Source: Escherichia coli
Lineage (GTDB): Bacteria; Pseudomonadota; Gammaproteobacteria; Enterobacterales; Enterobacteriaceae
Length of the DNA stretch: 64,000 bases
Assembly (NCBI RefSeq): GCF_041886205.1
Contig: NZ_CP169029.1
Strand: one strand, 5' to 3'
Position numbers and translations under genes: made by a program. Positions 1,608 to 24,200 of this stretch are shown one piece after another. The notes below the pieces were generated by a model. That model was not told the DNA's origin, searched no databases, and saw nothing but the letters and a program-made list of their open reading frames with translations. The first letter of the stretch is position 1, and each line of letters begins with the position of its first letter.

Positions 1608-1632
1608 CGCGACTGGCGATGCCAGTCGCGAA
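1608..1632. terminator. Bidirectional hairpin between convergent ygaC and alaE
   Basis: Inverted repeat cgcgactggcg...cgccagtcgcg between the two stops. Confidence 0.45.
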
Positions 1633-1640
1633 AAGAAGAG

Positions 1641-2649: not shown

Positions 2650-5600
2650 TCGCGCAGGACTGGCATACTAATTTTGTGACATATAAGGTACGCCACATCG
2701 ACATCACCAATCAAATACATACTCTTTTTTGTTTTGGTGCTCCAGCTGTTCCAGCACCATGTCCAAATGAAGTTCAGAAGCACCTCCACTCTCCTCTTTT
2801 GCCTGGCCACTGTCCGCTCTCAACTCCTCCATCTCACGTTTGTACGCCGAAGAGTTCCAATGTCGTCATCAGAAGTAACTGGAAGAGCAAGAGAGACACA
2901 CACACACACAGCCAACTGCATAAAAATTACGACTGTGAATGTTATAGTTGTTAATTAGCCGCCTTAAAGTTGAGAGCTTGTTGCACACGCCGTAATAATG
3001 AGGTGTTACGGTTGGCCAAATATAAATGTCATCAGTGAGCGTGCCAGCCCCCAGTGTTGTCAGGCCCGGCACCTGGAGAGCAATTTGCTGAGCCTCTGAA
3101 AGGCAGATCTTTGTCACTTCCTATTCAATGACTCAGGCGCGCTGCATGTGGGTCTTGTTGCTCTCGAGCGGTTGTTTATGGCATCTTCATCCAGTTGGTA
3201 TTCACATAAGTTGTTATTGGAAACAGAGCCCTATAAGCAAGTCCCGTCGAAGAAGAAATCCTGCCATTTAATGGTATAACCGAGACAGCACACGTGCTCA
3301 TTAGATTAACTACTGGCACCATTCTGATCTTGCATTAACGGAAGGTTCAGATTTGAATCACCGGGATGATGGGATCCAGTGGTTTTTCAAGGAATTGAAG
3401 TCCCACTTTCAGTTAGCATTTGTGGCATGTTGGCTCAACGTCACGCCACCACGTGGTGTCACCTTGATGCTGGAGACGATGTAATCTTCAGGGAAGATGG
3501 TTTTTTATGCAGAATGAAGTGAAATCGCCTTCAAGTAATGACCGATGAGCAATCATCAAGTGCGACGAAGATCCATTAAATTCTCGCTTGTGGATCAGAA
3601 TTCTGGCATCATGTGAAGTTGTTGAAACCAATGGGTCTCAGGAAGAATACTTGAGGTGGCGAATACCATCATCTACCGGAGCGGCCAAGAATGTGTTGGC
3701 GATCCCGGTCTGGTCCATAGAACTCTTTCCGTTGCACAGGAGCAAGTTGAATGCGAAGGCACCTTATTTGTGCAATGGTGCACCAGCTTTCGTGCTTGTT
3801 GTATGGAGGAGACTACAAGAACCCAACTTGTTAGGCGATTGCTTCAGGAACAGGAGCCACGCTGTGCGCTTTACAGGGCGCTGAGATTGTGAGTTGAGCC
3901 ATCAAAGTCATTTTAAGCGTTAGTTAAAATCAAGAAAACGAAGGAGAGTTAACAGTACCAGTCAGGCACAGTGTAATGAAATAAGTTAGAAGCTGTCAAA
4001 GACCGGCCAGCCGGAATGAGATCAATGCCCAAGTATAGATATTTTTTCAACAAATTAGTTTAGTAGTTCATAAGGGAGTACATGTGTTTCTGAGAATTGT
4101 TATCACCGATTCGTCGTTAGCCGTAAGGGTTTGTCTGTCAATCATCAAAACATTGTTGACTGCTTGATCTCCTTGTTCATTTTAATGTGTTTTGCTGTGT
4201 AGTCTTATTAGTCTGTGCTCATTCCCGTGTGCACCAACGCGTCATTTTTGCCCACATTTTTCGAAGCGATTTGTTAGTCAGAAGCGATGGTTGTTTAATT
4301 TGTTGGAGACAGAGAGTGAGAGAGCTGTATGTGTGTCAAGGTCAGGGACCACAAGGTGCCATCAGGTGAAGAAGGTGGAGGAACATTGGACAAAACCGGT
4401 ATGTCAGGCATGTCGATGAGCAGAAGGCGTTATATTGAAATTGCTGATTGGCAAAAGCGTTACTGGTGACTGACTGCTGAACGATAAGGGGAGCCAGAAA
4501 CCGTTGCTGGCATTTTGCTGCATATCCAGGTCGATGTTCAGGTAATGCCACAATGCCGCTGCTGATGCCAGTTTAAATCCGTCAGTCCTGCATCTTGAAT
4601 GGGGATTTCCAGCAGCAGGCTTCATGGATAACGCCAGTTGCAGAAACAGATAATCTTCAGCGTAAAGGAATTATGACAAAGGCGCAGACGTTGGCGAGCG
4701 TTGGATTTGCTGAAGAGGTGATCAATGGCTATCGCCTGCTGGATGCGGGAATTGTGTCAGGAGCTGCTGGATTATCGACTGACTGCGCGGTGATCTCGTC
4801 AGCATAATCGCCAGTCAGGTTTGGTCGATCCGTTGAACATTTCCAGATGCCGCATAAAACCAGGTCGTCGAGGAGAATTGATGTAACGTTAATGACAGAT
4901 CCAGAATGCTGGATTTGCAGGGAGATGGAGTCATAGCCCGCCACCATTGCCGGATGAAGCCGATGATAGCATCCACTTTACCGCTATCTACTGCGTCAGC
5001 GCCCAGCCTTAAGCCATAATCCTTTGTTAGGTTGTCTCCCATCATCCCCTTAATTGTGCTAGCACACCAATTGTTTACAGGATACATTTGCTTCCATATT
5101 GTGGGTGTCAAAATATAACGAACATAAGTAGTCTTGCCTTCACAGCCACCCTTGTCCTCATCCTTTTAGCTCCACCACCCACTAGGCTGTTCTTAGAGAT
5201 GGAGTTGTTGTGAGAAGAGTTTTCTGTACTGTTAATGCCAAATGCATATAATGCCAGCAACTTATCCAGATTCTTTATCTGTTAAGATTATTGTGCTACA
5301 CATAATTCTTTTGAATGCTAGAGCCATTTTTGAGAAGGTTGAAACTGTTGATGGGTTACTTTCTTATCATTATTGGAGCAGTGGAAGACCATGAACTTGT
5401 TGCATACACAACCGGTTAGTCTTTTCAATGCAGGACAATCCACTGAGAAGATATAATCGTTGATCGCAAGGAGCCAGTGAAATAGACCTCGAATTGTTTG
5501 GCTGACGAATAGGATCCCATTCCATCATCACCAACAGGAGCCAGCAGCTGATGAGATGTTAGCAGAACCAATGGACAAGCCACTGCAATGAGTGAGTTCT

Positions 5601-8600
5601 CGTTCTTCTGCTCTGGAACAAACTGGAATTGCTAACTGGAGATGGAGGCCAATCAGGAGAAGGAAAAGTGCCAACAGTGGCCATATGCGGAAGCTGTTAT
5701 TAAAATTGAAACACCTCTTGAGTGCGGTGTGAAGTAGTCTACCACCACCAAATCTTAGAAGACCTGGTGGAGGAAGAGAAAGCATCTACCTAGTGTCCGA
5801 CGGCGGCGGATTAGTTGATCACCGGGAGGAAGCATCACCCCTACGTGAAGGGAAGAGGAACGCGACGTGAAGAGGGCCGAGTCGAGGCAAAGTCGACGAC
5901 GTAAGCACATCAAGGTCAATGAGTTATTCTACACTGGAATATGTCCGAGTATTTACTTAGTGAAGAACCAATGGCTTGATCTAGGTTGGTTACCCCCGAC
6001 TAACCAATGACTACACAGGAGAAAGAAATATATAAATAAATAATAATGACAAGACCTTAGCGGTGGCGTGGAGGTTTTTGTTGTTCATTGTGATGGACAG
6101 AGTTCTGCTCATAAGAAGTATGGACGTACACTGTGGTTTAGATCAGGATTTAGTCAGGTTTATTGATAACTGTTGAGCATCTAAATGCCTTTAGGTTGCC
6201 TTACTTCAGCAGTTGCTAGCGGTGATTGTCATCACACCAGAAGAACAGAGCCAGCAAAGCCCAGCCAATGCCAGGTCAGCAGAACTCGGTCGAGTCAGGA
6301 GAAACCATGAGCGAGCGAGGTACTAGTTAGCAATGATGGAATGCCTGGACCAGAATGAGGAGATCATAGTGGTGAGTGTGCTTTCAGTGACAAAACCAGA
6401 GCCAAAACCAACAGCAACTAGCTGATGGCAGAGCCAGCTGAATTGCCTTTGCCGAGTGAAAAAATGGATGGGTGAAACACCCATCCTCAGCATCAAAACC
6501 AGAACTGATGTGTTCTGTGACAGGTTGGAAGATTGGCGTGTAGCTGGTGATGCTGCTGAGGAAGACAAAGAGCTGCCACAGCAATGGCAGAGAGGATGGC
6601 TGCTGGCCACTTTCAGTGGCTTGCTAAACCAGGTGGTTGATCACCGGACCCGGAAGTGGTGCACCAGCGAGATGCCCCACATTTCGCGTCGGGTTAGTGG
6701 TTTAATTTGTTATTTTTTTGCGGAGTGGCTGCAGATTGTTAGGTTGATTCCTGTTGATGAGATTCCACTAGGTGGGTGCAAGCTCATCCAGTCTACCTCA
6801 TCTCGTAGCTGTAGAGTGAGGGATTGTTTTACACCAGTGTGGTGAGCACTTGCTTTGCCTCAGCAGAAACATGGTGATGGATTTCCAGAGACTGATGAAT
6901 TGATGTTGTCCAGGATGCTGAGTGGAGGATGTGAGAGCAGGTTGGAGAAGACGGTCAGAGGAAGAAAGAAATTACTTTATTGTGGTGCAGGCATGGCTAG
7001 CTGGCTTAGTCGTCTGCCATCCTCGATCCATGGACATTGTCCAGCGGCAACGTCATTGCTGTTGCATGCCAGAGGACTCGGTTCTTCAGCTTTGTCCAGA
7101 TTGTCGTCTTCCGCAGACACTTGCTGAGACCTCAACATTTCAGCTAGCCACCCAGAATCGGGTTACGCAGGTGCCCCCCCCCCCCCACATCTTGAGCCAT
7201 GAGAGATCCAGATCATTTTTGCTAGTTGTGATCTAGTGGAGGGGGCGGTTGGCCTCCATCGAAGGCGTGAGATCGGGTGCTAGGCCCCATTGAGTTGCTC
7301 GATGAAGTAGTTGTATGCCGGGCGCCTTGACGTCGCACGTACGGACAATGTCGCCTTGCCGTCACAGTGCCCAGAGCCTTGCGTGTTGTGTAGACGCGCC
7401 TCCGGCGAGCTGCTTGATGATGCATGGGACATCTTTGTGGTGTAGGGCGATCGAAGGGTTTGTGAGTGGCTGCACAACCTGCACCACCGATTGTTGCTGC
7501 AGTGGGTAAGGAGTAGTGGTGGAGAAACCTGGAGGTCAGTGATAGACGATTGAAGGCCAGGTGCACCGACCTTGTCAGGGCGATGGTGCAGGGAGGTGGC
7601 GCTGCTATGTGTGGAAGTGATGGTCGGCGTGTGTTGTGGTGGTGTGGTAATTCTTCAGTCTTACTGCTTCATAAAGTTGTTGTTACCAAGAGCTGTTGTT
7701 TGGTTAATCTGCAATCTTTGAATTTCATAGTTGCATCATAGTTTGTAAGCGATACTCGGCCTGAGCAGGTGTAGCCTTCAATTGTCTGCATGGCCAACCA
7801 CTTTGGATCAAGGTGCCGAATCAAGCACGGTCGCCCGAACGAGACGATGGCCTTGAATCGACGGCACCGGGAGTCTTGGTCAGCAAGTTTGGTTAACCGC
7901 TTCACCAACGAAGGAGACCCTCTCCAACCACGCCGCCACCCAGAGTTCATTGTCTTCTCCACGGCGATTTTTAGTTAATCTATGCATATTTATTTTAGTA
8001 GTTTTCACGAGACCGAACCTTCTCCATGTACCAGTGGAGCCTTTCCAACTAAGTTGCTCACCCATTGAAAAAGAACCCATCGTTGGTACCGATGCCACTT
8101 GTACTCGATGCTTTGCCTTATGCCAGCGGCATATTTATGGTGAGAAATAGTGGAAAACCAAGTTTGGCTGCTGGCACGACACGGCTTCAACGTCAAGCCG
8201 AACAAGTGGGGTGAGGCTGAATGTTTCTTCGACACTTGGCGTTGGCGAACGACGAACCTGCTGGCTGAATGTTTATTTGGCTCACTGCAAAAGCAGCTCT
8301 CTCCCAGGCCACCTGGAGCAGCAGGCCTTCACTCTTTGTCACCTCTCCCAAGCTGGATGGTGAGTGATTCAGCTCACCAACTCATGAGGAATTTTTGCAG
8401 CACAAAAGGTGTGACAGCTGCCGCGACCAATAAGCTGCTGCAGAGACGAAAACTTGTGCAGAAATTGAATTCAGATGAGCTTCCATGCTCTGTTGATTGC
8501 ATTAATCAAGTAACTAAGAAGATGTGTTGCCTCCAGTTTGAGCCGAGTAGTTTGATGGTTTTTACTATACTGTTCAGAACTGGTCAACTTGGTTGTAGCT

Positions 8601-11150
8601 GTAAAGATGAGTTGAGATGCTGCCTTTACCTTTGCACTCATGCTGGTGCGAGCTGTGACCAGGAGACGACGGAAGGCCGTGGAATTGCCAGCCTCACCAG
8701 CTCAGCCAGAAGCTGTGTCTGACGCCTGCTCAGGCCACTGTGGGCTGCCAATGCTAGTTGCTTTCAGACATTGCGCCAGGAATCGATGGCATAATGGTGT
8801 TGCTGGCTCCAGAACAATTAGGTGTATCTCTTCCTCCATGTAACTGTTGCAGAATGTGTTTGCCCTCCAGGAAGACGCTACCCAGACCAGAAGGAAGGGG
8901 TTACTTATTACTCTTGCTTCAGCTGGTACCTGTCCACTTTAGTGTAGACTGATGTCATCAACGAGCAATGAAATGGGTGGCGGAGGCCAGCCAATGAGTG
9001 GGCAAATGCGTTGTGTGTCATAGTGGTTTATCAGCACCATGCACCGAACGTGACCAGCTTGTTGTGGTTTTTGCTATGTTGTGAGGCCGATCACGGCTCA
9101 TCCCCGTCATGCTGTGAAGAAGGACTGTGCTGAAGTTTATTACTTATTTGTCCGAAGGTTATTAATTAGGGTACATGTTCACTTATGTTGTAGACGTGCT
9201 AGGTCGACGAGGACAAAGGAGATGGAGCTGATTGCCAGGCGGACGGTGGAGGAAAACGGACGAGCCCATTGTGATGGCTGGTCACTGTGAGTGAGTGAGG
9301 AAGATTGTGAGGAAAGTGGATGGAGCAGAGAGAGAGAGAGTCCAGTGAGCCCCCAAGACGGTTTGACCTCAACCACTCAGTGGTGCAACTGTTGATCTGC
9401 ACGCACCGAATGAGACAAGACCAGGTGGTTAGGAAATGCTGCACAGAAGTGGTGCGTCAGGATGCATGTTGTGATGCTGCCTCCACCAGTGTGGCCATCA
9501 AACCATGGTGGTGTCAAGTGGTGTTGTAATGGCGCCAGACACGAAAGTGAGGACAAACTGGCTGTTTATTGTTGCAGCACCGCACTCAGCGTGAGCATTA
9601 GGCCAGGAAGAGAGCAGTTACGAGTTATCCATGTTGCCTGTGCACCACCACTCGTCCAGCTGACTGCTTCTGCGTCAGACTATGCCCTTGCCGTAACCGT
9701 TGCCATTGCCGCGACGGAGCCAACGCCACGGAGCCAGCGTCTGCACATTTGTTGTCAACTCCATGTCAAGCGACCCCTCGGAACGGTTGTGACATTTATA
9801 TGCGGTGGCAGTTTGCCGCCGTTCCATTTCAGAGTTCAGGTGTGCGGGCGACAGAGCGACTCCTGATGAGTTGGTCATCAGAGCCATGCTCCCAAAAGCC
9901 ATGCTTTGAGCTGTCACGGGGACACAAATCCTAGGATCAGGCCTCGCCCTGTGTCTTCAGCAGGAATGTCATTTTACAGTACAACTGCAGTCCACCTCAC
10001 CAAAAAAAAATCAGACGCCCATCTGTGACTCATGAATGTTTGTAGTGGTTAGGTTAGGAGAGGCAGCCACCTAGATCATGTGCCAACATCCTTGCTAGTA
10101 AGTGGTTATGTGTGAGACCAGAAGAGGTTGTTAATTCAGAGTCAACTGCTGTAAGCGGTACAGGTAGCAGCTTACTGTTTCTATGTGTTCAAAGTGACTC
10201 ACCGACTAGTTGCTCTTTCTTTCAAATTTTTGCCAACTAACTTTATATACAACCACTCACCATCAGATCAATGATGAAATATTTTGCCGACTTGTGCAGG
10301 CACATCCATGCTATGTGTGGTGGAAGAGTGAATTTAGACAGCAGAAGTCATTGGAGGTCAAATAATCCTCCACGGTACCCTTTACCACTTTATTTTCACA
10401 CCCACAAATTGATGTCACCGGACAGGCCGTCCAATCACTAGGCCAACAAGCCGTTGAAATGTTCTGCCAGCAGAAGAAAATGTAAATATGCCGCCATTGC
10501 ATCGAATTTTAGTGACTGAGTGACCACCGCCTCACCCTAGCTTCACCATTCCTACCGCCTACATCTACAACCACTCAATTCATTAAACAGCCCTTCAGGC
10601 TCAGGAAGTCTTGCAGAATGTGTTGTAATTATCTAATACAATTGTCAAAGACTTGGTGACCAAAATGAAGTGATCCATCAGTTGCCCAGGTATGCATTGT
10701 AGTCAAGTGCCCTGTTTGTGATGTTATATATATATCTGATGAATGTAATAGGTTACACAGCAGAGTTGTGAATCACAGGTTGTTTTTTCAGTGGACGATG
10801 CATTCATGTAGCCATTCTTTTTACTAGATGAGGAAGGGAGCCATCATCATTTGAAGCTAATTTAAAACATCCAAAAATGTACCAGCTACAATTGTTTTTC
10901 ATCGAAAATAGAGGAGTTGAACATTTACAGTAGCCAGAATAAAGTGAGAGGAAAAATGAAATGCAGAAAGACAGGTTAGGCCAAGATACGGTCAAAGAAC
11001 TCAATAACTAGAGGAAACGACACACACCCGCCCTGTTTTAGGGTAATAAAACATGAGATGACAAACAACTGTGTGGCTGCTTCCGGAAATAAGATGCAGG
11101 CCCGAGCCAAGCATACAATTAGATATGTCACAAACGCCTCAACTAGTAGA
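2650..11150. other. About 8.5 kb block with no credible coding potential and atypical composition (approximate boundaries)
   Basis: Only short overlapping ORFs on both strands with low-complexity, Cys/Trp-rich translations; frequent CTAG; simple runs (CA)n at 2896-2910, C13 at 7174-7186, (GA)n at 9326-9340, (TA)n at 10725-10737; no RBS-led genes. Confidence 0.6.
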
Positions 11151-11155
11151 TATGA

Positions 11156-13285
11156 TCAATCAGTTGTGGAGAATCTTGAGGAACGAGAAACATGATCACT
11201 CCCTGAATGATTGATCTCTCTGATGTTGCTAGGTGAGAGGCAACCTCTCAACCTTCTTTTATTTATTATAACTAGTCCATCATGAGGAGAGTGATTAATG
11301 TTCACAGAATCCCCACGACTAAAGGCCAGAACGTTTTTAGTTGCAAATACACCCTCAAATGCGCTCCATATTCCTGCTTTATCTATATATAATGCGTGGA
11401 ATTCATTGTAGAGCTGCTGATAGGTAGAGCAACCTTTATTAAGCCACGCCTCACCGCCGACACGCGTCGACCCATCATCATTTTTAATTTCAGTCGTTGA
11501 TTTTAATACTTGGCCATCCCAGTAAACTAAAGGCCTGCTGAACGGGAGAGCGGCCATATATGCCATTGCTAATTGTTCATCTTGTTGATGGTTAAATAGA
11601 AAGTCATTGAAAAGATTGCCATTGTTAGGAAAATCGTGGTTAATGTTAATCAATATCCGTCTTTTTGATGGGATGCTTGAGATTGTTGAACCCGGTTTTG
11701 ATGCAAGGGTTTGGAGATCGCCACCAAATGAAAAAGCTTTTATCGTCTTCATGAGCAATGAAAAATCAATGGCGCTTAAATCATCTCTTTCATAAAGCAG
11801 CGATGACATTTGTTGTTCATCCAACTGACTAGTTACCAGATATTCCATGTAATTCATAACGGCTTTTTCATGATATTTTGGGTTAAATAAGTTAGTATTG
11901 TGTAATCGCTCATTATAATTTTTAAGCGGTGGGGTTATTGATCTTTCTATTTGTTCATGTTTTGAGTGTTTTGCTGCATCGTAACGTAAACCTCGTACGC
12001 CATATTTTCGCATTTCACGAACGTATTGATTTTGCAGCATAATAACCTGGTCACTTTTGGGGGTTGTTTTAGGCATTCCATTTAAACGCTTTTCTTTTAA
12101 TGCATAGAGGTTTTCCCATTCATCCTTAGAAATATTATCTTTACTTGCTTCGAAGTCTTTTGCAGTGAGATGTATATCTTCTGGATGGATTTGTTTACGT
12201 TCTTTTGTTACTGGATCTATAGTAAATGGAATCAAAACCTGACCTTGCCAATAGCCAGGGATACCACTTTCTATATCTTTACTGATCTTCGCTCGTATAT
12301 CAGTAGAGGGATAATCCAGGTCATTTTTACCACTACCCCCGATTCCCATAAAGTTAAAGGTATAATCAGGAATGATATCGATACCAAATTTTTTAGCATC
12401 TTTAACCAATGCGATAAAATCCTGCAAATCTCCCATTGGATTATGGATGGTACAAAGATCTTCGGGTTGATAAGCGTGAAACCAGTAACCTTTTTCTTCT
12501 TCGGGAGTTTCTGGTCCGTCGGCGCGGAAAGTTGTCACTGGAGGGATTTGTATATACCCATAATGGCAACGTGCAAACTCAGACATATTTTCCCTGATTT
12601 GCTGGTAGGTGGCATTAAAAGCATGAAGAATCGCTTCGCCAGGTTTTTTAGGGGTGATGATTTCACATTGTGATTTCTGAACAGCAGTAAGAGATTTACG
12701 CTCAAGTGTTTGCCGTAGATGTTCTGGATTGATTAATATTTTAAATGTTTCTTGCTGTCCGGAAGGTGACGTCACGTTAATATTATATACATCGGCTGCC
12801 AGCTCATAGTCAGGGATGTTAATAGCATATGCAACATATTTATCTTTTGGGGAGGGTTTTTCAGATATAATGTGGGTGAAATATTCAGCAGGACCATACT
12901 GGTGAACCCCCTTGTTATCTTCTCTTTCATTCATTGTATCTCTTTGATAAATCCATGTTTTTCCTTCTCCTATCCTGTCTGGCGCTGTAATGCTACGCTG
13001 TGCAGCTTTATTCAGTTCACGGTAAGTTGTATCTGGAAAAAGGGAAATTTTATAATCGTTTTTTAACAGATCATTAATGATTTTTTCTGCGTGAAAAGTT
13101 GATATAATTTCTCTGTCTTTTAAATCCTGAGGATAAACTCCACAAGCATTAATAATATTTGTTACACAGTTTAGATATTCTAATGTATTTAATTTGGAAT
13201 TTAGATCCCCGTCAGTAATGTTCCATGATAACAATGTGGGGGTGTCGATAGGTAAATTTCTTGGTCCTGGTTTTATAGAAAACAT
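11156..13285 (-). CDS. ygaQ: Glycoside hydrolase family 13 (alpha-amylase-like) protein, YgaQ-like
   Basis: 709-aa ORF; GVRGLRYDAAKH resembles GH13 conserved region II; lies beside ileY as ygaQ does in K-12; AT-rich; the C-terminal end may be affected by the junction with the anomalous block. Confidence 0.55.
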   Translation of the reverse strand: MFSIKPGPRNLPIDTPTLLSWNITDGDLNSKLNTLEYLNCVTNIINACGVYPQDLKDREIISTFHAEKIINDLLKNDYKISLFPDTTYRELNKAAQRSITAPDRIGEGKTWIYQRDTMNEREDNKGVHQYGPAEYFTHIISEKPSPKDKYVAYAINIPDYELAADVYNINVTSPSGQQETFKILINPEHLRQTLERKSLTAVQKSQCEIITPKKPGEAILHAFNATYQQIRENMSEFARCHYGYIQIPPVTTFRADGPETPEEEKGYWFHAYQPEDLCTIHNPMGDLQDFIALVKDAKKFGIDIIPDYTFNFMGIGGSGKNDLDYPSTDIRAKISKDIESGIPGYWQGQVLIPFTIDPVTKERKQIHPEDIHLTAKDFEASKDNISKDEWENLYALKEKRLNGMPKTTPKSDQVIMLQNQYVREMRKYGVRGLRYDAAKHSKHEQIERSITPPLKNYNERLHNTNLFNPKYHEKAVMNYMEYLVTSQLDEQQMSSLLYERDDLSAIDFSLLMKTIKAFSFGGDLQTLASKPGSTISSIPSKRRILININHDFPNNGNLFNDFLFNHQQDEQLAMAYMAALPFSRPLVYWDGQVLKSTTEIKNDDGSTRVGGEAWLNKGCSTYQQLYNEFHALYIDKAGIWSAFEGVFATKNVLAFSRGDSVNINHSPHDGLVIINKRRLRGCLSPSNIREINHSGSDHVSRSSRFSTTD

Positions 13286-13844
13286 AATAACGTTCCTCTA
13301 ATGGTAGAGTAATATGATGTATACGGAAACATAAAAATGTTTAATTGTTATGAAAGTAATTGCAAACAGATGTCCTATTTTTATCCAATATTTATATGGA
13401 AAAGGATAATGCTTAAATCTGTTTTTTTAATTATCGATGTGGTCTGGAGAGGCAACTGTCAAAAATCGCTCATACGAAACTAATTATTAGCAGAATAAGT
13501 TCTATAAAAGAATATATTGCTATATGAAGTTTATTTTTATGGAGTGAAAAGTAACAGATATCATAATGATGCGAAAACTCTTCAGTTAATGTAATAAACT
13601 TATATTATTAGATACAAAATCATTACAAAGTATCATTGAATCAATGATAACTATAGATAGTGTTAATTATTAACATTTGCTTGTTGACTGCGAGTATCGA
13701 CTTTGCGAATGGAGGCGATGTCGGGTTTTATGTCGCATGTATTGACGACCCAAGGTGAATGGGAACGCATAAAAATCTGTTATTTACATCATAAGATCAT
13801 CATGTTTATTGCGTGGTTTATAAGTATTGTTATTGCATACTTAA

Positions 13845-13920
13845 GGCCCTTTAGCTCAGTGGTTAGAGCAGGCGACTCATAATCGCTTGGTCGCTGGTTC
13901 AAGTCCAGCAGGGGCCACCA
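13845..13920 (+). tRNA. ileY: tRNA-Ile2 (anticodon CAT, lysidine-modified), ileY-type
   Basis: 76-nt cloverleaf ggccctttagctcagtggttagagcaggcgactCATaatcgc...ggggccacca with 7-bp acceptor stem and CCA end. Confidence 0.93.
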
Positions 13921-13928
13921 AATAAAAC

Positions 13929-13970
13929 AAGGACTTAGACAGGAAGCTGGCTAAGTCCTTTTTGTTTTGT
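13929..13970 (+). terminator. Intrinsic terminator after ileY
   Basis: Hairpin ggacttag...ctaagtcc followed by tttttgtttt. Confidence 0.6.
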
Positions 13971-13976
13971 TTCAAT

Positions 13977-14001
13977 CTGGGTGACGTAATGGGTGACGTA
14001 A
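13977..14001 (+). repeat. Tandem GGGTGACGTAA motifs at the tRNA-proximal island end; possible integrase arm-type or AlpA binding sites
   Basis: tgggtgacgtaatgggtgacgtaa; the same motif recurs at 33759-33804 next to the integrase start. Confidence 0.45.
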
Positions 14002-14036
14002 CTCAACTATAGGTGCCGTAGTCAGGGAGATTTAGC

Positions 14037-14831
14037 ATGAGCTTTAAGGATAAAGTTGAAGAGAAAAAAATGCGCCGTATGGCCCGTCCCCCTGAGTTAA
14101 CGGTAAAGGACTGGATTAGCCTTTATGATCTTCTTCGTTCAGCCAAAGCTCAAGACTCAGAAGCCATGTACGAAGACTTCGCCTCTGTGCTGTTAACTAC
14201 CCTGTCGGTTGAGCATCATCCGGAACTATACCGCCTGGACGGAAACAAACTAAACGCTGTTGCCGATGACCATTTTGCCTGGGACCTACTATCCGCCCCA
14301 ATGAAAGGGAAAATGTCCCCTGAAGAATTGGCGAAGCGCCCGAAGACCCTTTCCCAACTTCTTTGTATCTACGATGAAGATATCAGTAACGACGAGTCAC
14401 TTCGTACACATGGCTTCTTGCGTGACGCTATTGCCCCTATCCTCGATTTCGAGCTTCTGGATAGCATCGAAGATGAGCCTGACTACAAAGAAAAATATTT
14501 CGAGTTGCTAGCAGCGCAAAAGCACTCGACTCCCCCGCCACTAAGAGGGGAAAGTTATGCTATCAAACGAGAAGAGTTGCTGATCACAGCCCTTGCGGTT
14601 ATCTCTCAAAATCAAAGAGACGCTAATAAAAAGGTCGTCCCAACAGTTACTGAACTTCTGAATCAGATAGAAAAACATGCCTCTGCGTTCTGGCCTCACA
14701 GTAAACAACTTCCGATGTCTCGTGAGAATGCTTCTAAAGAGCTAGGCTTCGCCTTACATCTTTTAGAACAACCAAATCAGAATATTGAATTTCTTCGGGA
14801 AGCCAAAAAAGCAAAAAGAAAAAGTGCATAA
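14037..14831 (+). CDS. Hypothetical protein (264 aa), island-encoded
   Basis: Clean ORF with acidic helical composition and a lysine-rich C-terminus; no motif recognised. Confidence 0.5.
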   Translation: MSFKDKVEEKKMRRMARPPELTVKDWISLYDLLRSAKAQDSEAMYEDFASVLLTTLSVEHHPELYRLDGNKLNAVADDHFAWDLLSAPMKGKMSPEELAKRPKTLSQLLCIYDEDISNDESLRTHGFLRDAIAPILDFELLDSIEDEPDYKEKYFELLAAQKHSTPPPLRGESYAIKREELLITALAVISQNQRDANKKVVPTVTELLNQIEKHASAFWPHSKQLPMSRENASKELGFALHLLEQPNQNIEFLREAKKAKRKSA

Positions 14832-14963
14832 AAAGAAATAGTTACAAAAGGTACCCAGTAATCTTCAGGAAGGTACACGAGAAATATACCGTTCAGTTTG
14901 ATTAACTCCGTTCAGTTTCAGCTTTCACCACCAGGAGTTATTCAATTGAAAAATAAACCAACC

Positions 14964-15167
14964 ATGTCTGATAAGGTTGTCGCCCTTCATCAGCCCCAAC
15001 GTCTGATTCGCATTGATACAATGCTTCAGCTCCTCGATTGCAGTCGCACCACCCTCTACCGCTGGGTTAAAGCTGGCATTTTCCCACAGCCGATAATGCA
15101 TGAGGGCCGAACCGTAGGATGGCCAGCCAATACGTATCAATGCTGGCTTGAGCAAAATAACAAGTAA
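14964..15167 (+). CDS. AlpA-family phage transcriptional regulator (Prophage CP4-57 regulatory protein-like HTH)
   Basis: LIRIDTMLQLLDCSRTTLYRWVKAGIFPQPI matches the AlpA/MerR-like HTH pattern; start trimmed from ORF 14898 to MSDKVVAL. Confidence 0.65.
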   Translation: MSDKVVALHQPQRLIRIDTMLQLLDCSRTTLYRWVKAGIFPQPIMHEGRTVGWPANTYQCWLEQNNK

Positions 15168-15272
15168 TTCTGTTTGTTAAAGGGCTGAAATATTCAGCCC
15201 TTTCTTCATCTGACAATGAAACAAACTGGAACAAAAACGATTATTTTCACCTATTCTGCGACATGCTAAAAC

Positions 15273-16589
15273 ATGAGTAACTCTCTGATTAATCAAGTAA
15301 CAAAGCCCTCACCTGGTCAGGAACTCACCTCGGTATTTAATACTATTACGCCCGATAAGCCTGGCAACCTTGTTGAATATCAGCCAAAGGGAACGTTTGT
15401 TTTCAAAGAAGTGATGTGGTCTGTGCTGCCAGAGAAACGCAACCAGGACACGAAGATCATGAAAAGAATCTTCGGGGCAGTTGACAAGGTATCAGCGATG
15501 TCTCGCTTTCTTGCGGTCAGATATGATTTTCGGCTCCCGACCTACAGTGCGGATAATCGCATAATGGATGATTTCCATAATTTACTTTTCCGCCAGTTAA
15601 GTAAGAACTACCCAAAATCGTTTATCAGCTATCTTTGGGTAAGAGAGCAGGGCTCAGGGGAAGCACAGCATTATCACTATTTGTTGATGCTGGATGGCAA
15701 CTATATCCGTTATCCAAATAAGCTGAATACGATTGTCCGACATTGCTGGGAACAGGTTGCTGGTGGTTCGGTATGGTTCCCGGAAAACGGTTATTACTTT
15801 GTGAGCGAAAATGATCTCAAGACCTATACCGAATTGATGCTGAGAGTTAGCTATCTGGGTAAGCGCCGTACTAAAGAGTCAATTGATAAAGGTATCAAAC
15901 TTTTTGGCTCAGGCATGCGCAAACCGAAACCTGTCGCGCCTTCACGCCAAAAGTCTGCAATAACACCCTGCAAGCCAATCAACCAAAAAGCGGAGACGAA
16001 AACCAACGATCAGGATATGACGTTGAAATCCACCTACTCAGGAATGTTGGACAAATATTTTCTGGGCAAAGCCCGATTACCCGCCGTTCTGCGTAAACGT
16101 TCATCCTATGAACTTTATGACGAAAATAAATGGTGGTGTAATTCACCACGTTGGTCCGGCCATCGTCATAACTACGTGTTAGAGGCTCTGATTACTGGGA
16201 TCAGCCTTTCTGATTACGCACGCAAGTACAAGTTGAATCCAGTACGGGTATATGCAAACTGTCGCCGTGTTGGGGGGCAAAGCCTTAAAATTATTCACTG
16301 GGCATGGCATCGCTATTGCTTCCAGAAAAGCAAATCCACACAGGATGACTACATTAACAATCACCGGCTGAATCATAAAACAGCTAAAAAGCAGTTACGG
16401 CGTAAACCAATGAGCTCTCACTGGAGCCAGCACTTTGATCGATATTATCAAAAGTACTGGCCGAAAGGCTGGACTGTGGCCGACTACTGCCGTGAACACA
16501 ATCTGGTCGCCAGCACTGCCAGACGTTATATAGTCGATTTTCCATTTATAGGCCTGATAGACCCGTTCTTGTTGAAACCATGGTTATAG
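15273..16589 (+). CDS. YfjJ/YagK-family protein (inovirus Gp2-like), probable HUH-type replication initiator
   Basis: 438-aa ORF with HUH-like motif QHYHYLLML; AlpA-adjacent position as in CP4-57 yfjJ. Confidence 0.5.
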   Translation: MSNSLINQVTKPSPGQELTSVFNTITPDKPGNLVEYQPKGTFVFKEVMWSVLPEKRNQDTKIMKRIFGAVDKVSAMSRFLAVRYDFRLPTYSADNRIMDDFHNLLFRQLSKNYPKSFISYLWVREQGSGEAQHYHYLLMLDGNYIRYPNKLNTIVRHCWEQVAGGSVWFPENGYYFVSENDLKTYTELMLRVSYLGKRRTKESIDKGIKLFGSGMRKPKPVAPSRQKSAITPCKPINQKAETKTNDQDMTLKSTYSGMLDKYFLGKARLPAVLRKRSSYELYDENKWWCNSPRWSGHRHNYVLEALITGISLSDYARKYKLNPVRVYANCRRVGGQSLKIIHWAWHRYCFQKSKSTQDDYINNHRLNHKTAKKQLRRKPMSSHWSQHFDRYYQKYWPKGWTVADYCREHNLVASTARRYIVDFPFIGLIDPFLLKPWL

Positions 16590-17176
16590 AGATGAAAACA
16601 CCATAACAGTGTCACCTGGTATACTTACTGAGCGCGGCGTAACTTAAATATAAACACTTAGCCGCCATCAGTAAGCAGAGCCTTATCAACACTACCAGGG
16701 AATTATTGTGCAGCATGATAGCTGAGGTACCTCTCAATTCTTGACGGACATTAACGCACAGACAACGCTGATTACCTCCTGTAAGCCAATTTATATCTGC
16801 TTGCTGCCACATATCCGCTGGGACTAATCCCCTTTAAACACCTTTTACTTCAAAAAAATGTTTTCCTTCTGATTTATCCCATACGCGAAATAATGAAGAT
16901 TTTATTTTAATTACTAATACTTTCAATGAGATAAGATGCATACATTCTTACACTCATATGATCACTTTTATTTTTCTTTTAATATCAACACGTTATGAAT
17001 TGATCAGCACAAAAGTCACTGCAGGGGGTTAGCTGATTGAACGTTTCAGTTCGTTTCTAATGGCCACATATAGATTCACATCAAGAACTAGTGATCACTG
17101 TAGGGTAACGGTATGCCCAGATCAGCCTGCAGGGTATTCGCTGCGGATGACATGAAAAACAAAGACAGGGGATTGC

Positions 17177-17824
17177 TTACGGGTCAACAAACACACTGAT
17201 GGGGAGGTTAAACCGGCGCGCAAGTGCTCGCTTGTGATCCAGTGTTAATGTGCAATCCCCTTTCAGGATGCGACTCACCAGAGATTTATTACCAATCTCT
17301 TCTTCAAAATCGCTCTGAGTCAGTTTGTGCTGATCCATCAGTACGCGCAGTAAGGCAACACCCGTTGGGACCGCTGCAATACGGCTATTAAATTCAGCAA
17401 ACTCCGGCGCTTCATCTTCATACTGACCGATTTTCGCAACCAGAATATCCACCAGCGGATGGTCCGGCTCGTGTTCAATCAGATACTCGACCAGAGCCAG
17501 TGCATCTTCACTGTGGAAGCGTACGACTGATGTATAGGTAACATTTTGTTCAGTAATATATTTCATGGCTGCCAGTAAGTAGGAAGCTTTGAAAGTCACG
17601 TCCTGATAGTCCTTAGCTAACAAACTCCCATTCTCTTCAAACCGTTCAACAAATGCTGCAACTTCTTTTGGATCGATACGGCTGGTTTTATCTTTTCCGT
17701 TTCGAACAAACAGCTTTTGTTCTTCAGTATATAGCGTAAAAGGTACCTTCCTTGCCCCAGTAGACAGTTCAACTGGTTGGGAAAAAGACTCCAACATTAA
17801 ATGATAGAAATCTTTATAAGTCAT
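17177..17824 (-). CDS. Protein with C-terminal XRE-type helix-turn-helix and uncharacterised N-terminal domain
   Basis: C-terminal LTQSDFEEEIGNKSLVSRILKGDCTLTLDHKRALARRFNLPISVF resembles HigA/XRE HTH; immediately downstream of the McrC-like gene. Confidence 0.55.
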   Translation of the reverse strand: MTYKDFYHLMLESFSQPVELSTGARKVPFTLYTEEQKLFVRNGKDKTSRIDPKEVAAFVERFEENGSLLAKDYQDVTFKASYLLAAMKYITEQNVTYTSVVRFHSEDALALVEYLIEHEPDHPLVDILVAKIGQYEDEAPEFAEFNSRIAAVPTGVALLRVLMDQHKLTQSDFEEEIGNKSLVSRILKGDCTLTLDHKRALARRFNLPISVFVDP

Positions 17825-17913
17825 GATTACTACTCCCTCATCATTTTAGCACTCAAGAAAATACATGATGTGGTTGATTATCCGGTTGATAATTATGAAT
17901 CGTCATCGTCTCA

Positions 17914-19215
17914 TTACGGGGAAAACAGGGGGAAGGACGATTGCCACTCACCTTCCACTAATGCCCCTGATTCAAGCTCGAAGGGCACACACCAGAGCGA
18001 TAAATGTTTATCAAAATGGAACACTGGCAACGGAGTATCAAAAAACTGATGACGTGGATATATCAGCATCATATTCCCCTTCCCTTGCAGATATTTTTGC
18101 CCATAAGCGAACATCTGATACAGATCAGCCTGGTTAATTTCATACTTTCTCAGGCTGTTATCAGCTCGGCTGTCTAACAGCTTCCATTTGGCATCCAGTA
18201 CCATTACCTGCTCACCTGTGATGAGAAAGTCAGGTTTAAGCATGAACCATTGTTGAGGAGCCCTTTCGCCAGCAGGTACATGATCTAACAAATAATGACG
18301 TTTTGCCTGCTCAATAAGCTGATAATCCCTCAGCAAAGATAAAGCCAAACTGCGCCCCACCCAGCATTCATATAATTTTTCCATCGGGAACAACAGCGAG
18401 ATCCCCTGATGCAACCCATGCTGAAAATCTGGATTCAGTTTTTCCAGAATAAGTTGGCACCATGGCTTGATGGCACGATAAGCATAGAGATATTTACCGT
18501 TGCTCCATTGCGCCAGAGGCTGCGTTGTACTGCCACAAATTGGCTCTATACCGTCCAGTTGGTGGCTCAACGTGTTCGCCTGTCGCCAGCTCTGCCCCTC
18601 TTTGGTCATTTTAAGCACCCAATTCAGGGCCGTACGTAACAGACGGTTTTCAACTCGCTGAGGTGAAAACTCCGCATAACGCACATGAAAGCGAGCATCT
18701 CTACCAGGAGGCTGTCTCATTTGTGCCGTGATGTTCAACTGACCACGGATAAAAGCGCTGTGCTCATCCTCAACAAGGTGGTAGTCGAACCGCAACCCTT
18801 TGTGTACCAGTTCGGTAAGATGCCGCAAGAACTCGCTGAAAATCCACTCATGCATCGGCTGGTTGCTCCGCTGCAATGCAGCCTGATTAACTTCTCGGGG
18901 TGTAATCCCCAATGAAGCGCTGAGCATTCGACGTAAAAGCTGACGCAGGGGGATTATCTCAGTTGGCGCTTCAAATGTGGTTTTGGGCAGAATTTCAATT
19001 GACTCGCCATTCGGGGATTGTAGATAACCGACATAGCTTCCCAAACGCAAAAACCGCTTCCCTTCTCGGCTGAGAATTTGAGAGGTACCACTCCACTTTT
19101 GTTGCAATTGCTCAAGCCAGGAAAAGGTTGCCTCAGAGACAATTCCCAAATCCATACTGGCTGTTTGAGAACTATCACAAGTCAGCAGAGCATATTCCCG
19201 GACCTGGATCATCAT
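17914..19215 (-). CDS. McrC-like PD-(D/E)xK nuclease subunit
   Basis: 433 aa; C-terminal PDF...VLDAKWK catalytic-type motif; start overlaps the stop of the upstream McrB-like gene. Confidence 0.7.
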   Translation of the reverse strand: MMIQVREYALLTCDSSQTASMDLGIVSEATFSWLEQLQQKWSGTSQILSREGKRFLRLGSYVGYLQSPNGESIEILPKTTFEAPTEIIPLRQLLRRMLSASLGITPREVNQAALQRSNQPMHEWIFSEFLRHLTELVHKGLRFDYHLVEDEHSAFIRGQLNITAQMRQPPGRDARFHVRYAEFSPQRVENRLLRTALNWVLKMTKEGQSWRQANTLSHQLDGIEPICGSTTQPLAQWSNGKYLYAYRAIKPWCQLILEKLNPDFQHGLHQGISLLFPMEKLYECWVGRSLALSLLRDYQLIEQAKRHYLLDHVPAGERAPQQWFMLKPDFLITGEQVMVLDAKWKLLDSRADNSLRKYEINQADLYQMFAYGQKYLQGKGNMMLIYPRHQFFDTPLPVFHFDKHLSLWCVPFELESGALVEGEWQSSFPLFSP

Positions 19216-21194
19216 GTGACAATACCCTGATAAGCTTCTACCGACGCGAAAGCACGTTCATTGATGCGAAAACGCCTGTCAGACAAGCTATCCGCAATAT
19301 CTTTCGGGAATAGTTCAGAGAATGACGGTAATTGTGCTGACTGTTGCAACAGGATAAAACGGTTTTCTTTCGCTTTTACCGAATCATTAAGCACCCAACC
19401 AATGCGCTCATAATCATCAAAGAAATACTCTCTCAGTAATGGAATGATTTTGTTCTGGAAGATGCTGGCCAGACAGGCTTCGCGGTCGGCATTATTTTCT
19501 AATTTTTTTAGTGGCATAAAGTAAGCATGGCCAATCATATGTTCACTATCCAGCAGCGCTTCGATCCGCTGATTAATACGCGTTAACAACGTTTCGACAT
19601 CAACACCGAACGCAGTGACCCCAGCTAACAGCTCCGGTCGTGCGGGCATTTCGGTAAAGCTAAAGCGTCGTCTTAGCGCCAAGTCCATTTGGATGAGTGA
19701 TTTATCCGCAGTATTCATCGTCCCAATGACATAAACATTTTGCGGTACTGAGAATGCTTGCTTTGAATAAGGGAGCATCAGCGACCGCTCATCATCGGCC
19801 CCTTGACGTTTGTCCGGCTCAAGAAGAGTAATAAGCTCACCAAAGATACGTGCTATATTACCGCGGTTGATTTCATCTATTATCAGTACATGTGGTAGAT
19901 CCTGACTATCGGCATTCTCAACAGGAGCCAGCAACTGAGTTAATTTTTCACGATCAATCGTCGTATCCTGCAACTCATATAGGGTCATCTGAGATAGTGA
20001 CTTGATGAAAATTTGCTCTTTAGGAAGGCTTGGGGTGTATGTTCTTAACCATTTAACTGAACGCATTTGATGGTAATACTCACGTTCATCATTGGGTAAA
20101 TAACTATACTCACCTGTAATCTCAGCTATTGCACGGAACTTATGATTTCCATCAGAGACGACGACTAAATCGCCATTCTTAATAATATTTTTAAAGGTAT
20201 TCACGGCAACAGCCATATAATTACTGGTGCCTTCCAATGACTGTTTTTCTGATGCAATCCGAGCTTTGACTGACTCATAGGTAGAGCAGTTACTAAAATC
20301 GATATCTTCTCCCCAACCTAGCAGGACATAATTGTTTGCCAGGCAGTCCTCATACACATCCTCTTCTCCGCCCATGGTATTACCCAGAGACATCTTCCAG
20401 ATCCGCCGACCTTTGAGTGAGATAGATTGTGTTGCACTCCCCTGAACTTTAACCCTGGCATTCAGGCACAGCTGTTTAAAAATACCATCCACAACTTCGT
20501 AGCGAAGCGCGCCCGATTTTTCATCAGTAGTTGCGCGAATCCCTTCGATAAAATCTTCATAGGAGAAGCTCTGATGGAAGGTGGTAAACATAATGCGCTG
20601 CTTTTCTACCAACGCCTTATAGCGTTCATTTACCAACTCCCGTAAGTCATTGCCATGATGTTCGAGCGTAGCCTGTTGGTACCACGTATTATCGGCAATT
20701 TTGACCGCCATTTCGGTGGTACTGTAGGTTTTACCCGTGCCGGGTGGTCCAAAGAGAATTTGGTTTAAGGGATACATTAACGATTGTTCCTTATTTTCGT
20801 TGTCTCTTTTTAGTCTGGGTTGGGTAGTTATAGATGGTTTACCACCCAGCAAAGCCACCAGCGTCTGCAACGCTTCAACGGATTCAACATCAGCCGCGAA
20901 ACCATATTGGGATGTACCGTTATCTTTCGGATAACGGCGGTAGCTGGTGCTTTTTACTTTTTCCCAAAGGCAGTGGATACCCGAAATGCGATCAATTTCC
21001 GCTTTTACGGCAAGGGTTTCAGGTGCAAGAACCAATGGACTCTTTTTAACCACGCCGTCCCGGCTGCGTTTGACATACAGATACTTTCCATTCCCGAGCG
21101 CATGTTCGGATGCATAGCTTGGCTCGAATTTTCCCGCCTCAAGCCGGTAACCCAATTCATTCAACGCCTGGTATATCTCGAAAGAATTCAGCAT
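19212..21194 (-). CDS. McrB-like AAA+ GTPase subunit with an unusually long insertion inside the AAA+ module
   Basis: Walker A ILFGPPGTGKTY, McrB-signature LIIDEINRGN and RRRF; about 285 aa between Walker A and Walker B; AAGGAG RBS before the ATG. Confidence 0.75.
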   Translation of the reverse strand: MLNSFEIYQALNELGYRLEAGKFEPSYASEHALGNGKYLYVKRSRDGVVKKSPLVLAPETLAVKAEIDRISGIHCLWEKVKSTSYRRYPKDNGTSQYGFAADVESVEALQTLVALLGGKPSITTQPRLKRDNENKEQSLMYPLNQILFGPPGTGKTYSTTEMAVKIADNTWYQQATLEHHGNDLRELVNERYKALVEKQRIMFTTFHQSFSYEDFIEGIRATTDEKSGALRYEVVDGIFKQLCLNARVKVQGSATQSISLKGRRIWKMSLGNTMGGEEDVYEDCLANNYVLLGWGEDIDFSNCSTYESVKARIASEKQSLEGTSNYMAVAVNTFKNIIKNGDLVVVSDGNHKFRAIAEITGEYSYLPNDEREYYHQMRSVKWLRTYTPSLPKEQIFIKSLSQMTLYELQDTTIDREKLTQLLAPVENADSQDLPHVLIIDEINRGNIARIFGELITLLEPDKRQGADDERSLMLPYSKQAFSVPQNVYVIGTMNTADKSLIQMDLALRRRFSFTEMPARPELLAGVTAFGVDVETLLTRINQRIEALLDSEHMIGHAYFMPLKKLENNADREACLASIFQNKIIPLLREYFFDDYERIGWVLNDSVKAKENRFILLQQSAQLPSFSELFPKDIADSLSDRRFRINERAFASVEAYQGIVT

Positions 21195-21223
21195 TTCCTA
21201 CACCACTCCTTGATGAAAAAGCG

Positions 21224-24200
21224 TTAAGCCCCTTTCAACATATCAAACACCACGCGGGCAAAGCCCTTCGCCAGTTCAGGATTAGAGAGGTATTGCACCA
21301 TCATCTCCTGCTGGGCGTCGTTGCTGTCCATCACGGCATCATCAATGGCTTTCGGGAAATCGCCCAGCATCGCCTGCTCACGCGTATTGTTCGCAATCTG
21401 GGTCATCACCGCCTGGTTTTCTGACAGCTTGTCGCGCACCGCGAAGGCATAATTGATCATGTCTTTATCGGTCAGATTATCGGTGACGAACAGCTCGTTC
21501 AGGCGCGCCAGGATATTCGACAGAAACTCTTCTTTCTTGTCTTTCGGCTTCGCCGTACCGACATCATTCCCCGGTGTGATTTTGTATTCTGCCGCATCTT
21601 CCTGCAGCTTCAGATGCTGTTCGTGGAGTTTCGACAGGCGATAATGGCTCATCTCCACGTTGCTTAAATCAATCTCATCTTCTTCGATACGCTGTTCATG
21701 CAGTAACGGGCGCAGGTGGCGGGCAAATAGGCTCAGTTTTTCCAGGTTCTTGTCGTCGTAATCGACGATTTGCGACATAAACTCGTAAAAGCGGACAAAG
21801 CTGCCGAGGTCTTTCTTGAAGATATCCAGCTTACTTTTTTCTTTCTCGCACTCTTTGAAGCTGTTTTCCGCATTGGTGATCAGCACAACATCGCCGGTCT
21901 TCTTAGTACGTTCGAAGATCGCTTTGGCCTTTACATACTCGTCAATCGCCGAGGTGTAACGCTGTTTCCAGCGCTGCACCGCTGGTTTGCAGATATTACT
22001 AATGGCCGCGTTGGATTTGTTTTTGCTGAAGAACGCTTCGCAGAACTGCTCCACTTCGTTCCACAGGAAAATACCGCTGGTACGCAGCTTTTCAAAGAGC
22101 TCAAAGACCTGTTGCGGGTCGCTGACATCCGTCAGTTCTGCTGTCTGGTAGTACGGCTGGAAAGCCCCCAAAATCTCGTCGGGCTCGTTGTAGAAATCGA
22201 GCACAAAGGTGCCTGACTGCGCCTTCCCCGGATAGGTACGGTTCAGGCGTGACAGCGTCTGTACACACTCCACGCCGCCAAGCTTTTTATCCACATACAT
22301 GGCACACAGCTTGGGTTGGTCAAAACCGGTCTGGAATTTGTTGGCCACCAGCATCACCTGGTAGTCGTCGGTATCAAACGCTTTGCGCATATCCCGGCCT
22401 TTCAGGCCTGGGTTCATATTGATTTCGGTGAACTTCTGGTTAAGCAATGCAAGGCTATTGTGGTCATCTTCATGGAACTCAACTTCACCGGAGAACGCCA
22501 CCATTGCGCTGATCTTGTCGTATTTTTGCTCGGCGATGTATTTATCGAATGCCAGCTTATAGCGCACCGCTGCTTTACGCGAACTGGTCACCACCATCGC
22601 TTTCGCCTGACCAGCCAGTAAGTGCATCACATGCTTGCGGAAGTGCTCAACAATCACCTTCACTTTCTGCGACACGTTATGATCGTGCAGCGATACCCAC
22701 TGGTTGAGTTTGATCTTGGCTTTCTTGCTGTCTACTTCCCGGTCAGGATCGTCCAGCTTTTGCAGCAGCTTGTACGCCACCTTGTAGTTGGTGTAGTTCT
22801 TCAGCACATCAAGTATGAAGCCTTCTTCGATGGCCTGACGCATTGAGTAAACGTGAAACGCTTCCGGTTTGTTCGTTTTCGACGCCGGTTCCTGCGGATT
22901 AGGACGACGGCCAAACAGCTCCAGCGTTTTGGCTTTCGGCGTGGCGGTAAAGGCGTAATAGTTGAGATTGTTGCTGCCTTTACGTGCGGCGACGGTGGCA
23001 TCCAGAATATCTTCTGAAGACATCTCCACATCGTCATCCGCTTCTTCGGTCATAAGCACTTCTTTCAGCTGACGCGCCGTAGAACCACTCTGCGAGGAGT
23101 GCGCTTCATCGGCAATCACCGCGTATTTGCGCTGCTTGAGGCTGACGCTGTTTTCAATCGCCTTCAGGACAAACGGGAACGTCTGGATAGTGACGATAAT
23201 GATCGGCTGCGAGTTTTCCAGCGCGCTGGCCAGCTTCTCCGATTTAGAACCGTCGCCTTCTTTGTTATTGATCCGCCCGACCACGCCATCCTGATGCTCA
23301 AACTGATAGATGGTGTCCTGCAGCTGATCGTCAAGCACGGTGCGGTCCGTCACCACAATCACCGAATGGAACTGCTTCTCGCCATTTTCATCATACAGGC
23401 GGGAAAGCTGATGGGCCGTCCAGGCGATAGAGTTAGATTTGCCCGACCCGGCACTGTGCTGAATCAGGTATTTATTGCCGGTGCCTTCCACTGTGGCGGC
23501 GGTGATCAGTTTATTCACCACATCCCACTGGTGATAGCGTGGGAAAATCAGGCTCTCACTTTTGTACTTCAGGCCAATGGCATCTTCTTTTTCTACGATT
23601 TGCAGATGCACGAAGCTCGCGAGAATTTTCAGCAGATTGTCCGGCAGTAGCACCTCATTCCACAGGTAGCTGGTGGCGTAGTCGTTGGCATCTTCCGGGA
23701 TATCGTTCCCCGCACCGCCGTCATGGGTGCCTTTGTTAAACGGCAGGAAGAAGGTTTTATCGCCCTCGAGTTTGGTCGCCATAAACACTTCGTACTGGCT
23801 GACGGCAAAGTGCACCAGCGCGCCGCGTTTAAAGGTCAGCAGCGGCTCGGGTTTATTAGTGCCTGGGTCCTTTGGCAAACGCGTTTTCTTATATTGCGTA
23901 ATGGCGTTTTGCACCGTCTGCTTAAATTCAGACTTCAGTTCCAGGGTCGCTATCGGCAGGCCATTAACGAACAATACCAGGTCGATACGCCATTTCTTCG
24001 CTTTTATACCGGTATCTTCAAATGCGGCGTTCGATGCATGCGGGCTGTAAACCAGCTCCGGCACGATGCGGCAGATATTCTGTTTATAACGAGCCAGTGT
24101 TTCCGGATTGAGGTTATGTTCCGGCTTAAACTGGCACAGAGAAAAACGCGCGTTATGGCTTTTGATACCATGTCGCAGCACGCCTAAAGTGCCATAGGTG

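Follow-up and report, generated by a model that had tools for sequence, protein, structure and literature searches.

An open reading frame of 709 codons next to ileY in Escherichia coli joins a truncated ygaQ-family gene to foreign codons at a probably artefactual junction

A stretch of 64,000 nt of Escherichia coli DNA (contig NZ_CP169029.1 of assembly GCF_041886205.1; the whole stretch is called the window here) carries a long open reading frame next to the tRNA gene ileY. Is this frame an intact member of the ygaQ family, and does its 3′ end belong to the gene? The frame extends over positions 11156..13285 on the minus strand, starts with ATG and encodes 709 aa; the absence of internal stops, described in an earlier sequence-only reading, is confirmed by the ORF listing. 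A frame of this length in DNA of 38% GC is far beyond chance, and a GAGGAA ribosome-binding site can be read from the sequence 8 nt 5′ of the start. The gene ileY (tRNA-Ile2, anticodon CAU; 13845..13920, plus strand) lies 559 bp upstream; it was identified by ARAGORN and by the Rfam tRNA model (71.6 bits), and is annotated as tRNA-Ile in the matched genomes. The intergenic region between both genes (13286..13844) is AT-rich (about 30% GC), native and 100% identical to the comparison genome 6EVA, and includes the ribosome-binding site of ygaQ and, presumably, its promoter.

The same reading had placed a disrupted ygaQ at this position in K-12, and this is correct: the MG1655 pseudogene b4462 (2,253 bp) is syntenic, lies between ileY and glaH and is interrupted in frame by stops at three Trp codons (111, 346 and 614). 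Older annotations divided b4462 into ygaQ and ygaR fragments. A horizontal origin had been suggested from the high AT content. The GC content is 37.8% for the ORF versus 46.8% for the window outside the foreign block described below, and the literature treats ygaQ as an example of a horizontally acquired, AT-rich gene that is silenced by H-NS and contains spurious intragenic promoters (PMC7229825), which supports the remark on the AT content.

The assignment to GH13 had been based on the motif GLRYDAAKH, which resembles region II of this family. The motif corresponds to aa 432-440 (11966..11992, minus strand), includes the predicted nucleophile D436 (nt 11978-11980) and aligns to region II of the B. 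subtilis amylase and of R. bromii Amy16. A check for the catalytic residues had been proposed, and all residues of regions II, III and IV are present in the window ORF. The predicted general acid/base E481 of region III is encoded at 11843..11845, and H550-D551 (the "NHD" of region IV, with D551 as predicted transition-state stabiliser) at 11633..11638, both on the minus strand. R434, D436, K439 and E481 are invariant in an alignment of 44 homologs; H440 is found in 43 of the 44, as are H550 and D551, for which the exception is a truncated sequence. Region I is different. D307 and N311 are kept, but all 11 sequences of the YgaQ clade have Phe (DYTFNF, "NFMG") at the position of the His, which is present in 32 of 33 relatives outside the clade; the remaining one has Gln. 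This His is a substrate-binding residue and not a catalytic one. Judged from the alignment, the Phe argues for a divergent subfamily rather than for exclusion from GH13. Given the missing His, the substrate of the YgaQ clade, and even its hydrolytic competence, is uncertain.

The fold of the native protein of 750 aa agrees with this assignment. An AF2 model (mean pLDDT 83.8, pTM 0.86) shows, besides a (beta/alpha)8 core and a domain B, a domain C with nine strands at 652-742; pLDDT is below 50 at aa 1-25 and 93-111 in the N-terminal region. In a Foldseek search against the PDB almost all of the top 50 matches were alpha-amylases, and all were GH13 enzymes (best E 2.6e-23), among them P. haloplanktis 1B0I, Drosophila 8OR6 and Bacillus 3DC0 and 1BAG with target-normalised TM scores of 0.74-0.78. 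Searching the PDB sequences with phmmer retrieved the B. subtilis amylase and R. bromii Amy16 with E values of about 5e-8, and Pfam Alpha-amylase (PF00128) scored 23.8-23.9 bits at a cut-off of 22, with its match at aa 264-525 of the window ORF. By its fold and by regions II-IV the native protein is a member of GH13. From what is established for GH13 enzymes, a retaining double-displacement mechanism on alpha-glucosidic bonds would be expected for the native enzyme, with D436 as nucleophile, E481 as acid/base and D551 stabilising the transition state. Inspection of the native protein revealed no evident signal peptide, and it is therefore probably cytoplasmic.

The family is narrow. It comprises sequences from E. 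coli and Shigella, an E. albertii ortholog (738 aa, 59% identity) and a few relatives of 700-825 aa with 32-39% identity; beyond these follow GH13 enzymes of the ordinary type, about 450-530 aa long, with 23-28% identity, some of them annotated Synechococcus. Within E. coli, the ygaQ-family gene is a common, already annotated accessory gene. The exact 750-aa sequence was found on 60 contigs, and its cluster at 90% identity has 15,629 members.

The description of the window ORF as apparently intact did not hold at the C-terminus. BLASTP against WP_000491446.1, the intact 750-aa protein of 6EVA, gave 676 identities over 676 residues and nothing beyond. In the DNA, every position from 13285 down to 11258 agrees with the native gene; position 11257 is mismatched, and 11254-11256 match by chance. 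The homology breakpoint thus falls at 11254-11258, inside the ORF, and the next 200 nt past it are 23% identical to the native sequence, which is the random level. When positions 9000-14000 were compared by megablast to complete E. coli genomes, 5,425 of 5,426 matched, and among the matches listed the alignments start at 11254. The native part (11258..13285, minus strand) comprises codons 1-676 of 750. These encode the N-terminal region (about 215 aa), the A/B catalytic domain and, of the strands predicted for domain C, the first two. The DNA of this part is 100% identical to 6EVA, and its identity to a second comparison genome, GCA_036252075.1, is 99.993%. The remaining 33 codons and the stop (11156..11257, minus strand) are read from a foreign block, and the resulting tail, RRLRGCLSPSNIREINHSGSDHVSRSSRFSTTD, stands in place of the 74 native residues 677-750. 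It had been noted that the end of the ORF abuts an ORF-free block and that the 3′ boundary should be checked. The check was warranted. Instead of stopping at the edge of the block, the ORF extends into it by about 100 nt. The native stop codon would fall at window position 11033.

The conservation of the last codons, also proposed as a check, was analysed in two alignments, one with 11 and one with 44 relatives. In all full-length homologs 48-87 residues of conserved domain C follow the column of K676, and the tail bears no likeness to the C-terminus of any homolog. The C-terminus of the homologs is thus a different one, the outcome that the earlier reading had named as refuting an intact gene, and it points to a truncation or fusion at this junction. 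Pfam Alpha-amylase_C (PF02806) matches the native protein with 31.1 bits (aa 649-738), and a Pfam search of the window ORF did not recover it. The truncation point lies inside domain C after the second strand, so that seven of the nine strands predicted in the AF2 model of the native protein are taken away; the C-terminal all-beta domain, present in the native protein, is thus not preserved in the window ORF. The tail itself is uninformative, because the block has about one stop per 20 codons and a run of 33 codons is close to the length of a stop-free run in random sequence. With regard to orthology, the ileY side and residues 1-676 are retained at 100% identity, and the glaH side and residues 677-750 are replaced by the block. 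Therefore, the ORF is a truncated member of the YgaQ family.

The block (2663..11253, right edge ambiguous between 11253 and 11257) has a length of about 8.6 kb and is ORF-poor. At megablast and blastn sensitivity it matched nothing in collections of E. coli genomes (28 Gb), plasmids (7.3 Gb) and phages (2.3 Gb), and one 24-mer from it was not found in JGI metagenome contigs. For eight of its ORFs no exact record exists among 15 billion proteins and 153 billion gene positions. Pfam searches with its ten longest stop-free segments gave sub-threshold noise only, and an Rfam search over the whole block gave no matches. The longest ORF from start to stop has 190 aa. The 3-base periodicity is 0.98 versus 2.2 in the flanks, i.e., there is no coding signal. 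The ratio of observed to expected CpG is 0.59 in the block versus 1.0-1.4 in the flanks; CpA (1.39) and TpG (1.38) are in excess, and TpA is at 0.60. CTAG occurs at 3.0 per kb in the block versus 0.72, the number of Chi sites is 0 versus 10, and a (AC)7.5 microsatellite lies within the block. The block is foreign, non-coding DNA, and its dinucleotide signature looks like that of a CpG-methylating eukaryote; among animal genomes its composition would be fish-like. It is also the sole unusual object near the ORF.

Several other origins of the block were considered and rejected. Shuffling of native E. coli sequence, whether by mono- or dinucleotides, would keep the CpG ratio above 1; reversal would swap CpG with GpC, and GpC is likewise above 1. 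When the block was compared in its forward, reversed and complemented forms with part of the native 6EVA region (gabP to ygaQ, L001), no likeness was found. A low-order Markov-random sequence is not compatible with the (AC)7.5 run, which has a likelihood of about 1e-4 under a first-order model. Internal repeats were not found in the block. RNA folding gave no excess stability (mean MFE z-score +0.26), and a giant structured RNA was rejected on this basis. Tetranucleotide correlation does not set the block apart, with r at 0.51 for the block and at 0.44 for one native segment. A terminator-like hairpin at 11234-11250 is within chance expectation.

The native arrangement was derived from the comparison genomes. 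Both flanks of the block are collinear with 6EVA at 100% identity: on the left side, window positions 1-2662 (nrdI, nrdH, ygaM, ygaC, alaE), and on the right side positions 11254-13923, where the 6EVA gene (L001 5780..8032) is 2,253 nt long and its product is the 750-aa WP_000491446.1. The left breakpoint (2662|2663) is 96 bp 5′ of stpA. Between the breakpoints 6EVA has 10,164 bp, compared to about 8,591 bp for the block, which replaces stpA, ygaP, ygaV, yqaE, kbp, csiR, gabP, gabT, gabD, lhgO and glaH as well as the 74 codons at the 3′ end of the amylase gene. The natural draft genome GCA_036252075.1 differs from the window at a single position in 15,336 nt (11254-26589), a match that includes the same 20-kb ileY island. 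This genome carries the intact 750-aa gene, followed by the native glaH, lhgO, gabD, gabT and gabP, and its homology to the window stops at 11254. The 709-aa product has no record among 153 billion gene positions and 15 billion proteins. At the junctions and in the block we found no IS element, integrase, recombinase, selectable marker or repeat, and microhomology at the junctions did not exceed 3 chance nt.

Our data support the view that the 709-aa ORF is a chimera of a truncated common ygaQ gene and 33 arbitrary codons from a foreign block, with a junction that is most likely artefactual; we assign a probability of about 85% to this reading. Codons 1-676 represent the 5′ 90% of a widespread gene whose intact form encodes 750 aa. 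At 11254-11258 the native sequence gives way to the 8.6-kb block, in place of about 10.2 kb that reach from 96 bp 5′ of stpA to codon 677. Translation would pass through the arbitrary block codons and then stop, and a product with so little of domain C would, as judged from the structural model, probably be misfolded or inactive. The junction itself is most likely a product of sequence construction, arising either from a substitution made in silico or from an error in scaffolding or assembly. This conclusion is drawn from absence and context: a genome near-identical over the 15.3 kb compared keeps the native arrangement, the product is absent from the records and no mechanism was found at the junctions. 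Some of the data fit less well. In a typical chimeric mis-assembly foreign DNA is found on one side only, but here both flanks are collinear E. coli sequence, and this is at least as compatible with a deliberate or in-vivo replacement as with an error of the assembler. The unequal lengths of inserted and replaced DNA also argue against a simple mask of equal length. The same two observations would be expected if illegitimate recombination in a living lineage, natural or engineered in the laboratory, had exchanged stpA to glaH and the 3′ part of ygaQ for 8.6 kb of DNA from a eukaryote: the flanks, 100% identical to natural isolates, do not resemble a one-sided chimeric contig, and none of the replaced genes is known to be essential. 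We nevertheless regard such an event as very unlikely, considering that the block and its junctions lack any marker, recombinase, IS element, integrase or repeat, that microhomology is limited to the chance level, that the composition of the block is wholly unameliorated, that the native order is kept in a genome near-identical over the 15.3 kb compared, and that the fusion protein does not occur in public assemblies. That the block is a genuine chromosomal replacement, arising from cross-kingdom acquisition or undocumented engineering, removing stpA, the gab/csiD-lhgO-glaH cluster and the 3′ part of ygaQ and creating a YgaQ fusion ORF, is highly improbable. Even less credit can be given to the idea that the ORF is a natural, functional YgaQ allele with an alternative, shorter C-terminus. 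The frame is open, the native start and ribosome-binding site are present and the catalytic residues are all kept, as would be expected for such an allele; yet the DNA of the tail has no homology to any E. coli genome, no homolog shares the tail (RRLRGCLSPSNIRE...), no identical sequence occurs among 15 billion proteins, the truncation falls within domain C after its second strand, and an open run of 33 codons is expected by chance.

The question of function also has to be considered, since a nuclease activity was reported for a part of YgaQ. A search of the literature found no report of alpha-glucan hydrolase or transglycosylase activity for any YgaQ-family protein, and the sole functional paper describes a fragment of 110 aa as a nuclease. 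Over-expression of this K-12/W3110 fragment led to mitomycin C resistance, the purified fragment cleaved the ssDNA of 5′ flaps, and both resistance and cutting were lost in a mutant combining changes of D25/D27 and of a C-terminal Glu-Arg-Lys triplet (PMC4725251). If YgaQ were a DNA-repair nuclease and not a glycosidase, with its activity within the N-terminal 110 aa, the loss of the C-terminus in the window ORF would matter little. We consider this unlikely. The 110-aa polypeptide results from the first nonsense mutation in a pseudogene, lies wholly outside the amylase catalytic domain (aa 264-525) and includes part of the region of low pLDDT. Moreover, the full glycosidase active site is conserved in distant relatives that do not have the N-terminal region, and an independent replication of the nuclease result was not found in the searched literature.

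With a chimeric origin of the 709-aa ORF, its apparent intactness is an illusion that results from read-through into foreign DNA, and has little biological weight. The locus is of importance for quality control. Annotation would yield a 709-aa protein, plausibly named "alpha-amylase family", although no such protein exists in nature, and an annotator would overlook that eleven native genes (stpA to glaH) are replaced. For specialists, the YgaQ clade represents a divergent GH13 group with a Phe in region I and an uncharacterised N-terminal region, and it is relevant that the published "YgaQ nuclease" corresponds to the 110-aa product of a nonsense-truncated pseudogene, outside the amylase domain.

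The closest known counterpart of the window ORF is the intact ygaQ allele of 6EVA (WP_000491446.1), with which it shares residues 1-676, the position between glaH and ileY and the upstream region. The window ORF differs from this allele by the lack of residues 677-750, i.e., most of domain C, and by the 33 unrelated residues found instead. K-12 ygaQ is located at the same locus, has the same native length of 2,253 bp and has a translation that appears highly similar; it is broken by three stops, whereas the window copy does not have these stops and is cut at codon 676 by the block. A more distant comparison is possible to the three-domain GH13 alpha-amylases, represented by 1BAG and 1UA7 (B. 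subtilis), 3DC0 (Bacillus sp. KR-8104), 1AQH and 1B0I (P. haloplanktis AHA) and 9QF9 (R. bromii Amy16). Identity to these enzymes is only 17-19%, and YgaQ differs from them by the additional N-terminal region of about 215 aa, by the region-I Phe and by having no evident signal peptide, but it shares with them the fold of (beta/alpha)8 barrel, domain B and domain C, the catalytic Asp/Glu/Asp and regions II-IV.

The foreign block of 8.6 kb (window 2663-11253, with the right edge ambiguous to 11257) is nearly free of ORFs and has replaced about 10.2 kb of native chromosome, from stpA to glaH. Its composition is eukaryote-like (CpG o/e 0.59, CpA/TpG 1.39); it is rich in CTAG and contains an (AC)7.5 repeat. 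No Chi site is present in the block (2663-11253), and its sequence had no match in any of the collections searched (E. coli genomes, plasmids, phages). Exactly at the right junction, where the block enters the 709-aa ORF, a terminator-like hairpin (TGAGAGGCAACCTCTCA, then a T-run) is located at 11234-11250 on the plus strand, opposite to the strand of the ORF. Two terminator-like sites were found in the region versus 1.7 expected, which is within chance expectation.

The tmRNA gene ssrA (53333-53695, minus strand; tag ANDENYALAA) lies within the window, which therefore covers the part of the E. coli chromosome running from ssrA through ileY to nrd. The segment 42001-46000 has an unusually high GC content (59-61%). 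A genomic island of 20,056 bp (13924-33979) is integrated in ileY, and 43 bp from the 3' half of the tRNA are directly repeated at its two boundaries (13881-13923 and 33937-33979). Its cargo comprises a 264-aa ORF, an AlpA-like gene, a gene for a YagK/YfjJ-domain protein, McrBC-like genes and a type I restriction-modification system. The ileY site is empty in strain 6EVA, a reference with the native locus, and in some genomes the same island was found at other chromosomal positions (L005-L008).

In K-12, ygaQ is a pseudogene (b4462; positions 2898-5150 of locus L009). All three of its inactivating stops fall on Trp codons (111, 346 and 614), and the b4462 fragment preceding the first stop is what has been published as a 110-aa 'YgaQ nuclease'. 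A distant member of the YgaQ clade (824 aa, 33% identity) is encoded at 4916-7390 of a human-gut metagenome contig (L010), surrounded by genes for InvH, LRR, FidL-like, EAL and intimin/invasin domains.

N-termini of the YgaQ clade are rich in Ser, Thr, Asn and Pro and lack an evident signal peptide; these features and the gene neighbourhood on L010 might point to a link with a virulence island or a secretion system. The clade may represent a distinct GH13 subfamily: its members are extended at the N-terminus by about 215-290 aa, a stretch missing from typical GH13 relatives, and in alignment A4 the GH13 region-I His is replaced by Phe in 11/11 YgaQ-clade sequences (NFMG versus NHMA; native residue 312, window 12350-12352).
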